In this document: one piece after another, positions 7,504-36,753 of the stretch
Layout: each line of letters begins with the position of its first letter
Numbering within the stretch: position 1 is the first letter of the stretch
From: Escherichia coli
Lineage (GTDB): Bacteria; Pseudomonadota; Gammaproteobacteria; Enterobacterales; Enterobacteriaceae
Assembly: GCF_003991155.1 (NCBI RefSeq)
Contig: NZ_CP031293.1
Reading direction: 5' to 3' (one strand)
Length of the DNA: 64,000 nucleotides
Made by a program: the position numbers and the translations under genes
Notes under the pieces: model-generated
Database searches by the model: none
The model's input: only the letters and a program-made list of their open reading frames with translations
Told to the model about the DNA's origin: nothing

Positions 7504-9004
<1,501 letters not shown>

Positions 9005-9042
9005 TTAGTGGCGATCAGGCTTTTTTTGCATCTGTTTGAGAA

Positions 9043-9117
9043 CAAAAAAGAAAACCGCCGATCCTGTCCACCGCATTACTGCAAGGTAGTGGACAAGACC
9101 GGCGGTCTTAAGTTTTT
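9043..9117 (-). terminator. spy terminator: long imperfect hairpin (9054..9106) flanked by an A-run and a T-run, bidirectional
   Basis: Arms ACCGCCGATCCTGTCCAC / GTGGACAAGACCGGCGGT pair at 16 of 18 positions; U-run on both strands. Confidence 0.55.
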
Positions 9118-9128
9118 TGGCTGAAAGA

Positions 9129-9614
9129 TTATTCAGCAGTTGCAGGCATTTTACCTTTTGCCGCTGGACGTTCTGTCAGACGCTTCTCAAAATTAGCATT
9201 AAATTGCTTTTTCTGTTCCGGCGTCAGGATGTTGTAAATCTTGTTCTGGGTTTCCATGTGCGCCAGCATGTTAGCTTTGCGCTGTTCTTCCATTTTTGCG
9301 ATCTGCGCTTCAGCTTTTGCTTTATCGAAGGTATCGCTGGCAATGATGTCATGCATTGCGCGGCGTTCTTCCAGCGGCGGACGTTTCATCTGGTCACGCT
9401 GGCCTTTCATGATTTCGCGGATCTGCTGTTTCTGCGCGTCGGTCAGGTTCAGGTCTTTGAACATCATGTCCTGATGCGGACCGAACTTGCCTTTGTGGTG
9501 CATCATCGGCTTCGCGTCAGCCGGTGCTGCGGTAGTGGTGTCTGCGGCATGGGCCAGGTTAGCCGCGCCAAGAGCCAGGGTAGAGGCAACAAACAGTGCA
9601 GTTAATTTACGCAT
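9129..9614 (-). CDS. spy: periplasmic ATP-independent chaperone Spy
   Basis: 161-aa ORF with signal peptide and LTDAQKQQIREIM motif (CpxP/Spy family). Confidence 0.95.
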   Translation of the reverse strand: MRKLTALFVASTLALGAANLAHAADTTTAAPADAKPMMHHKGKFGPHQDMMFKDLNLTDAQKQQIREIMKGQRDQMKRPPLEERRAMHDIIASDTFDKAKAEAQIAKMEEQRKANMLAHMETQNKIYNILTPEQKKQFNANFEKRLTERPAAKGKMPATAE

Positions 9615-9752
9615 ATTCTATATCCTTCCTTTCAGTTATTTATTACGGCTTTCTTAAGTAGCGTGCCGTGTTGACGAGATTAACTTTACTGACTTTAGCG
9701 TCAATTAATCAGAGCAACGGTAAAACAATGAAAGTGTAAAAAACACTTTTGC

Positions 9753-9770
9753 GCCAATTATGGAGAAAAA
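9753..9770 (-). promoter_or_regulatory. BaeR box upstream of spy (TTTTTCTCCATAATTGGC on spy strand)
   Basis: Exact match to the BaeR consensus TTTTTCTCCATDATTGGC as I recall it, about 140 bp upstream of the spy start. Confidence 0.55.
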
Positions 9771-9916
9771 AAGAAAATTTGATGGAGAGTAATGAGAAAA
9801 TATTACAACACGATGATTTTGCAGAGATTATGAAGAACTATACCGGATGACTGGTGATAAATAAAGCAAATAACCAGGATTAATCTGTATTAATTTATAA
9901 GAAAGTAACTTAATAC

Positions 9917-9938
9917 CCGCAGAATGATTTCTGCGGGT
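9917..9938 (-). terminator. hairpin (CCCGCAGAA-TGAT-TTCTGCGGG) immediately downstream of astE; possible ast operon terminator
   Basis: Perfect 9-bp stem; U-tract on the minus transcript is weak. Confidence 0.4.
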
Positions 9939-9943
9939 AAGTA

Positions 9944-16007
<6,064 letters not shown>

Positions 16008-35394: not shown

Positions 35395-36753
35395 TTAATT
35401 CACCTCAGAAATCTCTTCCAGCGACACCTTCCGCGTTTCGATGCCAAAAATGGAGAGAACCAGCGCACAGAGCACTAACATGACACCAAGCACCATAAAC
35501 ACCGTGATTGACCCATAATGCGTTAATAGTGCCGCAACGCCATAGGGCGTGAAGACTGCGACGATCCGTCCGACGGCATTAACGAAACCCGAACCACGCA
35601 GGCGTAAATGCGTTGGCCAAAGTTCCGGGATATAAACCGCCGACGCGAAGCACACATACATGTATAAAAAGAAGATCATCACCAGGCCATAGATTAAAAT
35701 CGCCCACTCTGTAGTCTGAATTGAATAGATATAGCCTAACACAGCAATAATAATAAGTAAGGCAGAGCCAAATAATCGACGAGGAAAATGATCAATAATT
35801 AATGCCGCAATAAATATCCCTACCGGAGCGCCAATCATAATAACAGCGGTCATTAATATTGATTTATCAACATCAATGCCGGAGTTAACAAATATGGTCG
35901 GTATCCATACGGTGATGGTATAAAGCGAAATGTTCATTGCAATTAAAACAGTAATCGCGACTAATGTACGTCGTAACATTTCCCCTTTAAACAGGAGCCA
36001 GAAGGTACCCTTGATTACCTTAACCTTGCTGTTGCTCTGGTTCAAAGTAAGCGGGGGTAAACGAATACTCTTCTCTCTTTCAATTTGCTGCTCTACTTCA
36101 CGAAGTTGGCTTTCTGCACCTGCGATTTGCCCTTTCCCCGCCAACCATCGAGGCGACTCAATAAAGTATTTACCTGAGAGAAACCAGGCTAACAGTATGC
36201 CAATACCACCCAGCAGAAACATTATCCGCCAACTAAAAAAAGCGATAACCACCACGCCTATCGCCGCAGACAACATGGGCGACCAGTTACCGACAAATGA
36301 GAGCCGCGCGGACCATTTTCCACGCACCGTCGCGGGGATAAACTCCGTAAATGAGGCATAGCCAACCATAATCAGCGCCCCCATTCCTGTTCCCATCAGG
36401 AAGCGAAAGAAGATGAGCCAGTACATATCAGGGACAAAAGCGGCCCCTGTTGCCGCAATACCGACGATGAGAAGATTTATGCGAAACGCCCTGCGCCGCC
36501 CAAAGTAGTCACCAATAAACCCACCGGTAAGAGAGCCGATGAAATAACCAAACATTAATGCCGAGGTAAAGGCGGCATTGAGGAGATTATTTGACCATCC
36601 ATTGCTTACCAGCTTTGCTAAAACAACATTGCCTGAATAACTCAAAAAACCCGTTAATAACAGACTAAAGCTTATAATACCAAATATACGATAATGAAAC
36701 CGGGCCAAAGGCAAGCGGTCCAGTCTTGCGCCAATTTGATCATATTGTTCCAT
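35395..36753 (-). CDS. ydjE: MFS transporter
   Basis: 452-aa, about 12 TM helices, sugar-porter-like GR[RK] motifs. Confidence 0.8.
   Translation of the reverse strand: MEQYDQIGARLDRLPLARFHYRIFGIISFSLLLTGFLSYSGNVVLAKLVSNGWSNNLLNAAFTSALMFGYFIGSLTGGFIGDYFGRRRAFRINLLIVGIAATGAAFVPDMYWLIFFRFLMGTGMGALIMVGYASFTEFIPATVRGKWSARLSFVGNWSPMLSAAIGVVVIAFFSWRIMFLLGGIGILLAWFLSGKYFIESPRWLAGKGQIAGAESQLREVEQQIEREKSIRLPPLTLNQSNSKVKVIKGTFWLLFKGEMLRRTLVAITVLIAMNISLYTITVWIPTIFVNSGIDVDKSILMTAVIMIGAPVGIFIAALIIDHFPRRLFGSALLIIIAVLGYIYSIQTTEWAILIYGLVMIFFLYMYVCFASAVYIPELWPTHLRLRGSGFVNAVGRIVAVFTPYGVAALLTHYGSITVFMVLGVMLVLCALVLSIFGIETRKVSLEEISEVN

Follow-up and report, generated by a model that had tools for sequence, protein, structure and literature searches.

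A BaeR box upstream of spy in Escherichia coli: consensus match, conservation and promoter context

The 18-mer TTTTTCTCCATAATTGGC, read on the minus strand from position 9770 to 9753 in the astE-spy intergenic region of Escherichia coli, is very probably the known BaeR operator of the spy promoter, and neither the site nor its regulation is new. It lies 139 bp upstream of the spy start codon and belongs to the three sites on which the published BaeR consensus was founded. The stretch of DNA analysed, here referred to as the window, is 64 kb long; the two features that define the locus are as follows.

Positions 9753..9770, minus strand: BaeR box TTTTTCTCCATAATTGGC, with 0 mismatches to the Nishino-type consensus and 16/18 identities to the mdtA and acrD boxes.
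Positions 9129..9614, minus strand: spy coding sequence, encoding the periplasmic chaperone Spy of 161 aa (RefSeq; Pfam LTXXQ PF07813, E = 1e-23).

The box, its consensus and the regulation of spy

An earlier, sequence-only reading proposed that the reverse complement of 9753..9770 is an exact match to the BaeR consensus. The consensus used there is indeed the published one, TTTTTCTCCATDATTGGC, which is quoted verbatim in PMC3799227 and PMC3915751 and credited there to Nishino et al. 2005, and a pattern search of the 64-kb window with it returned 9753..9770 as the sole match with 0 mismatches. When up to 3 mismatches were allowed, one further match was found in the window, against 0.29 expected from window shuffles. 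This other match, GTTCTCTCCATTTTTGGC at 35443-35460 on the minus strand, has exactly 3 mismatches and is situated in the 3' part of a 452-aa open reading frame (35395..36753, minus strand), where the spy offset no longer aligns the window with K-12; being intragenic and compatible with chance, it was rejected as a BaeR site.

The match at spy is far beyond chance, yet it is no independent test of the consensus. Compared column by column, the mdtA, acrD and spy sites have the majority sequence TTTTTCTCCAT[AGT]ATTGGC, i.e., the published consensus, in which D is the union of the three bases found at position 12. Because TTTTTCTCCATDATTGGC is the majority or union of these three sites, spy could not fail to match it perfectly, and the match adds no weight of its own; exact agreement with a three-site consensus is not evidence when one of the three is the site under test. 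As far as the sequences go, the real weight is in the near-identity of the 18-mers in three unlinked BaeR-regulated promoters, as the spy 18-mer is identical at 16/18 positions to the mdtA box of K-12 (TTTTTCTCCCTTATTGGC, 2153945-2153962) and likewise at 16/18 to the acrD box of K-12 (TTTTTCTCCACGATTGGC, 88 bp upstream of the ATG).

The placement of the box upstream of spy stood up to RefSeq annotation of identical E. coli DNA and to the Pfam assignment given above. Over a 901-bp segment, identity is 100% with many E. coli chromosomes, in which RefSeq annotates spy and astE, and this segment is present in 5424/5426 complete genomes. Across this region, the window corresponds to MG1655 at a constant offset of +1,816,011, and the only intergenic differences from K-12 are at 9791 and 9798, outside the box. 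Both positions carry a plus-strand A instead of the K-12 G, a minority allele located between the CTCTCCA element and the distal repeat described below; identity of at least 99% over 9716-9800 was found in only 85/5406 E. coli genomes, and most carry the two-mismatch K-12-like form. Directly past the astE stop codon, a perfect 10-11 bp hairpin, ACCCGCAGAA-ATCA-TTCTGCGGGT (9915-9938, minus strand), is probably the terminator of the ast operon, separating astE from the spy control region.

Envelope stress (e.g., indole, zinc, copper, ethanol, or misfolded envelope proteins) activates the sensor kinase BaeS, which phosphorylates BaeR, a response regulator of the OmpR/PhoB winged-helix family. The dependence of spy on this pathway is documented in published data: under 5% ethanol, knocking out baeR shifts spy expression by -5.76 log2 and knocking out cpxR by -3.04 log2, spy has the top weight in the BaeR iModulon, and it responds 70-fold to overproduction of BaeR, 40-fold to CpxR, and 3.9-fold to RcsB. 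In Salmonella, spy requires both BaeR and CpxR, and in Klebsiella an activating mutation in baeS induces it strongly; dual control of spy by BaeR and CpxR is described in these Salmonella and Klebsiella reports and also in Bury-Mone 2009. The fall of spy in the baeR knockout, the 16/18 identity with the mdtA and acrD boxes, and conservation in 80 species all support the interpretation of the 18-mer as a BaeR box. Such regulation is in the textbooks already, and nothing new on BaeR at spy follows from the finding. Studies of the Bae and Cpx envelope-stress pathways use spy as their standard reporter, this region mediates the strong induction of the chaperone, and the exact operator bases matter to reporter and biosensor design.

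Conservation and anatomy of the control region

Conservation was assessed in spy loci from 80 Enterobacteriaceae species, with per-position frequencies taken from 57 dereplicated species and column invariance from 23 genera. In nearly all 80 species, the best match to the 18-mer is placed consistently, at about -143 to -172 relative to the ATG, and the orthologous 18-mer, anchored on the neighbouring invariant block, has 3 or fewer mismatches in 48/80. The 18-mer in its exact form occurs in Escherichia only; what is conserved across the 80 enterobacterial species, in a fixed position, is the core TTTnYCTYCAYAWTTG. Among the 57 dereplicated species, positions 3, 12, and 14 of the 18-mer are invariant, 96% or more of the species keep positions 6, 9, 10, 15, and 16, and positions 1, 5, 8, 11, 13, 17, and 18 are variable. 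The invariant or near-invariant columns in the 23 genera are T9775, C9773, T9768, C9765, C9762, A9759, T9757, T9756, and G9755. Spacing is conserved as well: the box lies 32 bp from the GTAAA block in 70/80 species, and this block lies 31 bp from TTGACG in 74/80. The stretch between TTGACG and the ATG (5' UTR length) measures 75 to 106 nt, with one exception among the 80 species. A weight matrix trained on 54 non-Escherichia orthologous sites was scored over the 128,000 positions of the 64-kb window, and the E. coli box reached 27.0 bits for the full site versus 14.9 for the next best in the 64 kb, and 22.3 bits for the 13-nt core versus 12.5 for the next best of the 128,000 positions.

Operators of the OmpR/PhoB family are about 18-22 bp long and consist of two direct repeats about one helical turn apart, which are bound by a head-to-tail dimer of the winged-helix response regulator. 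The conserved columns at spy can be parsed accordingly into the following putative units.

Positions 9756..9775, minus strand: putative full BaeR dimer site, two 9-nt half-sites 11 bp apart.
Positions 9775-9767, minus strand: putative weaker half-site, TTCTTTTTT in E. coli and TCCTTATTT in the cross-species consensus, drawn from conserved columns.
Positions 9764-9756, minus strand: putative stronger half-site, TCCATAATT, drawn from conserved columns.
Positions 9753-9745, minus strand: possible weaker third unit, CGCAAAAGT, drawn from the cross-species consensus.
Positions 9694..9714, minus strand: possible weak third copy of a 21-nt repeat, CTCTGATTAATTGACGCTAAA, of 71% identity, overlapping the -35 hexamer.
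Positions 9783..9789, minus strand: CTCTCCA, a possible additional element 22 bp (two helical turns) upstream of the CTCCA core of the box.

In the cross-species consensus, TCCTTATTT and TCCATAATT follow each other in tandem at 11-bp spacing, a layout that fits the expectation for a dimer of the OmpR/PhoB family. A repeat finder reported a 21-nt direct-repeat family with copies at 9747-9767, 9817-9837 (76%), and 9694-9714 (71%). The last of these is at weight-matrix rank 91, which is not significant for this region; it lies 53 bp (about five helical turns) from the box, at a position equal to that of the box at mdtA and acrD. The offset of CTCTCCA is fixed at 22 bp in 51/80 species, and the element is not significant by weight matrix.

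Between the box and the promoter-like elements, two features are found on the plus strand.

Positions 9720..9734, plus strand: CpxR-type box GTAAA-ACAAT-GAAAG, with canonical N5 spacing and a degenerate second half, inverted relative to spy.
Positions 9736..9740, plus strand: second perfect GTAAA pentamer, less conserved, the N11 partner of the sequence-only reading.

The plus strand of 9720-9745 reads GTAAAACAATGAAAGTGTAAAAAACA. The GTAAA repeats in this segment had been put forward as a possible CpxR site with non-canonical spacing. The CpxR-type site and the two GTAAA pentamers 11 nt apart are there, while the spacing has to be corrected: the first GTAAA (9720-9724) is kept in 80/80 species and GAAAG (9730-9734) in 78/80, whereas 9736-9740 reads GTAAA in 58/80, ATAAA in 15, and GGAAA in 3. 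The pentamer at N5 from the first GTAAA is the conserved GAAAG and not the second GTAAA, so the likely CpxR site is canonical in spacing. This block is the most conserved intergenic segment, with a mean identity of 0.94 and 1.74 bits per position. The pattern alone is non-discriminating, because GTAAA-N5-GTAAA with up to 2 mismatches has 75 matches in the window against 58 expected, and no peak is called at spy in CpxR ChIP-exo data. Judged by its conserved sequence, 9720-9734 is likely the CpxR site at spy.

The proximal promoter and the start of the transcript may be described by three further features.

Positions 9699..9704, minus strand: -35-like TTGACG of the stress-inducible proximal promoter, exact in 79/80 species and at fixed spacing to the CpxR block.
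Positions 9677..9688, minus strand: -10 region with two candidate hexamers, TAATCT (9682-9677, 16-bp spacer) or TAAAGT (9688-9683).
Positions 9645..9669, minus strand: 5' UTR stem-loop ACGGC ... GCCGT at the start of the spy mRNA, with a 15-nt loop in E. coli.

The promoter assignments rest on conservation, because a consensus promoter scan of 9000-10000 called no sigma-70-like site above threshold; in the TAAAGT candidate, T-A-A-A-n-T is invariant. The supplements of Cappable-seq and SMRT-Cappable-seq hold no transcription start site (TSS) entry in this region, and Kim et al. 2012 list no Klebsiella spy TSS and, for E. coli spy, the upstream TSS at 9829 only. Their TSSs of mdtA and acrD cannot calibrate the box-to-TSS distance, because these are distant, of low count, and from uninduced cells. 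The UTR stem is perfect, at least 5 bp long, and at the same offset in 52/80 species, with the compensatory variants ACGAC/GTCGT, GCGACA/TGTCGC, and CGGTG/CACCG, and its loop is the indel hot spot behind the 75-106 nt variation in UTR length. Because this hairpin begins at 9669, the inducible TSS would be placed at about 9670-9677; counted from there, the BaeR box would be about 80-100 bp upstream, its centre at roughly 80-90 bp, and the CpxR site roughly 50-57 bp upstream. The TTGACG hexamer (9699-9704) also forms a perfect 6-bp inverted repeat with CGTCAA (9671-9676), the arms being 22 bp apart and flanking the proximal -10 region. In 23 genera, the two arms hardly vary and do not covary, which fits a constraint at the DNA level better than one at the RNA level; the repeat could be bound by some dimeric regulator, or the -35 hexamer and the start-site region could match by coincidence.

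From this anatomy, a mechanism can be proposed. BaeR-P would bind as a head-to-tail dimer to two 9-nt half-sites of the form T-Y-C-W-Y-A-W-T-T, 11 bp apart (9775-9756). The 18-mer would take in all of the stronger half-site but the weaker one only in part; 70 bp upstream, another direct repeat of BaeR type is predicted (9836-9815). BaeR-P would then activate the sigma-70 stress promoter (TTGACG, 9704-9699) from upstream, in a class-I-like position, and CpxR-P would act from GTAAA-N5-GAAAG (9720-9734), between the BaeR box and the -35 hexamer. We infer the direct contact of BaeR with the bases of the 18-mer, the parsing into half-sites, and the TSS from the layout of the conserved elements.

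The distal repeat, in vivo binding and alternative readings

Further upstream, a BaeR-like repeat and a mapped promoter overlap.

Positions 9815..9836, minus strand: distal BaeR-like direct repeat TCTTCATAA-TC-TCTGCAAAA, containing two exact TCTNCANAA 9-mers 11 bp apart.
Positions 9829..9842, minus strand: upstream spy promoter, with the -10 hexamer TATAGT (9842-9837) and the mapped TSS A9829.
Positions 9865-9860, minus strand: TTTATT, -35-like hexamer of the upstream promoter.

The 9-mer TCTNCANAA is a BaeR consensus attributed to the spy footprinting paper of Yamamoto et al. 2008. Upstream of spy, its exact matches are the two in the distal repeat (9836-9817) and one in the box (TCTCCATAA, 9766-9758), with no others. 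Window-wide, TCTNCANAA is not significantly enriched (12 matches versus 8.3 expected), and it is notable only as a cluster of 3 matches within 79 bp on one strand. Because the sole tandem pair is the distal one, the two published BaeR consensuses probably emphasise different sites 70 bp apart, and the Yamamoto footprint may centre on the distal site, the only place where the direct repeat of TCTNCANAA occurs. The distal repeat is fixed at 70-72 bp from the proximal box in 56/80 species; with the orthologue-trained matrix, it is at rank 15 of the 128,000 positions and scores 8.2 bits on the 13-nt core.

BaeR ChIP-exo data (Choudhary et al. 2020) contain two peaks upstream of spy, 1825677-1825711 and 1825823-1825843, which correspond to 9666-9700 (peak_1) and 9812-9832 (peak_2) in the window. 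Neither overlaps the 18-mer, peak_1 being 53 bp downstream and peak_2 42 bp upstream of it; peak_1 covers the core promoter, starting at TTGACG, and peak_2 falls inside the distal repeat. None of the data sets for CpxR, KdpE, PhoB, and ZraR contains the spy peaks, whereas generic hot spots such as raiA, uxaC, and yffS recur in them; the spy peaks are therefore specific to BaeR. BaeR thus clearly occupies the spy region in vivo, and the called peaks favour the distal repeat over the 18-mer. Users of the two published consensuses should be aware that these point to sites 70 bp apart, of which the distal one is favoured by ChIP-exo. Speculatively, an occupied interior box could escape detection if exonuclease digestion halted at the outer boundaries of a large complex of BaeR, CpxR, and RNA polymerase.

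These peaks are the starting point of a different assignment, in which the distal repeat (9836-9815) is the principal in vivo BaeR operator at spy and the 18-mer is auxiliary or conditionally occupied. Peak_2, with a signal-to-noise ratio of 9.25, is the highest BaeR signal outside mdtA, and it falls in the distal repeat, while the 18-mer is without a peak; mdtA and pstS (PhoB) have one peak on the operator and one on the core promoter, so that by analogy the distal repeat would be the spy operator. This is also the only direct repeat of exact TCTNCANAA at 11 bp upstream of spy, and its offset from the box and its matrix rank, given above, speak in the same direction. On the other hand, the 18-mer is far nearer to the validated mdtA box (16/18), scores 22.3 bits against 8.2 on the 13-nt core, and is better conserved, at 1.45 bits per position versus 0.8-0.95 for the distal repeat. 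The distal peak also spans positions -3 to +18 of the mapped upstream TSS and could partly reflect a promoter complex, and exonuclease stops at the edges of a multi-protein complex could, as said, hide an occupied 18-mer. Distal primacy is considered rather unlikely on balance, and a distal and an 18-mer operator are not mutually exclusive.

The upstream TSS stems from Kim et al. 2012, who report 152 reads for a spy TSS 215 nt upstream of the ATG in uninduced cells, i.e., A9829 in the window. Hexamer positions 1, 2, and 6 (T9842, A9841, and T9837) and the TSS A9829 are invariant in 23 genera, and A9829 is inside the distal BaeR-like repeat, under peak_2; the 215-nt leader starting from it includes the BaeR box, the CpxR box, and the proximal promoter. 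Together with the RcsAB-like element described next and the response of spy to RcsB, these observations hint at a second, differently regulated spy promoter upstream. About 52 bp upstream of the 9829 TSS there is a conserved block, ACAGATTAATCCTG (9875-9888, minus strand), with an invariant GA-N4-TC (G9885, A9884, T9879, C9878). It agrees at 10/14 positions with the RcsAB-box consensus TaAGaatatTCcta (PMC4325325), and the cross-species consensus of the block at 11/14; as an RcsAB box, 9888-9875 was rejected, as 10/14 could arise by chance in this region, and a literature search found no paper linking an RcsB box to spy. A two-promoter switch may be imagined, in which distal BaeR-P occludes a basal, possibly Rcs-responsive promoter and BaeR-P at the 18-mer together with CpxR-P activates the proximal one, but this is a doubtful conjecture, and a literature search found no description of an upstream spy promoter or such a switch.

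Three other explanations of the 18-mer were weighed against its assignment as the spy operator. It might replace the -35 of a BaeR-dependent promoter of its own, with a 14-bp spacing to TACACT (9738-9733) and a TSS near 9726, while CpxR drives the TTGACG promoter. The box-to-TA-n-A-n-T spacing is equal at acrD (14 bp, TACAGT) and spy, T9738, A9737, and T9733 are largely conserved with TATACT present there in several genera, and BaeR and CpxR are described in the literature as independent regulators of spy. However, the TACACT hexamer is already accounted for by conservation of the CpxR block in which it lies, the BaeR ChIP-exo peak of promoter type is at 9666-9700 and not at about 9745-9715, no TSS is reported near 9726 (in TSS data from uninduced cells), and the acrD -10 is itself a putative assignment, so that such an arrangement seems very unlikely. 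Even less credit is given to the idea that the conserved box is bound by a different protein, or kept as part of the 215-nt leader RNA, its likeness to BaeR sites being incidental. The box is indeed inside a transcribed leader when the 9829 promoter fires, but RNAalifold predicts no pairing over the box and detects no covariation there, and an Rfam scan of 8900-10100 found no family at gathering score, its three sub-threshold matches being outside the box and at chance level. Moreover, the invariant bases at fixed spacing are as expected of a DNA site, and the 16/18 identity with two other BaeR-regulated promoters would be hard to explain otherwise. That the 18-mer is a functionless chance match is favoured by the AT-richness of the region and by nothing else; shuffles give 0.29 matches even at 3 mismatches, a 0-mismatch match is far rarer, and together with conservation at a fixed position in 80 species this leaves the notion effectively refuted.

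Comparison with known BaeR, CpxR and Pho systems

The closest counterpart of the spy operator is the box of the mdtABCD-baeSR promoter, which is identical at 16/18 positions, has the same orientation to the regulated gene, and answers to the same regulator. The mdtA box is within BaeR ChIP-exo peak_5 (2153931-2153967), and a second mdtA peak covers the core promoter (Choudhary et al. 2020). The two differ in their promoter context: the mdtA box abuts its core promoter, with the second peak (-10/TSS region) starting 10 bp downstream of the box, whereas the spy box is about 50 bp upstream of the -35 hexamer, with the CpxR site in between, and no ChIP-exo peak is called on it. The acrD box resembles the spy box at 16/18 positions as well, and both have a TA-n-A-n-T hexamer 14 bp downstream. 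It differs in being promoter-proximal, as it abuts the core promoter, and no BaeR ChIP-exo peak was found at acrD. Control of acrD by CpxR is reported to depend on BaeR, whereas CpxR and BaeR are reported to act independently at spy.

With respect to the Yamamoto-type box TCTNCANAA, the spy 18-mer contains one exact copy, but the only tandem pair is situated 70 bp upstream. The CpxR-type box at spy shares the canonical spacing and a perfect first pentamer with GTAAA-N5-GTAAA boxes (e.g., that of cpxP), and spy is CpxR-dependent, but the second pentamer, GAAAG, has 2 mismatches. Like the Pho box and OmpR operators (PhoB at pstS; OmpR at ompF and ompC), the putative BaeR site is made up of tandem direct repeats, 11 bp apart here; the Pho box has another half-site sequence and typically replaces the -35, whereas the BaeR box at spy sits further upstream.
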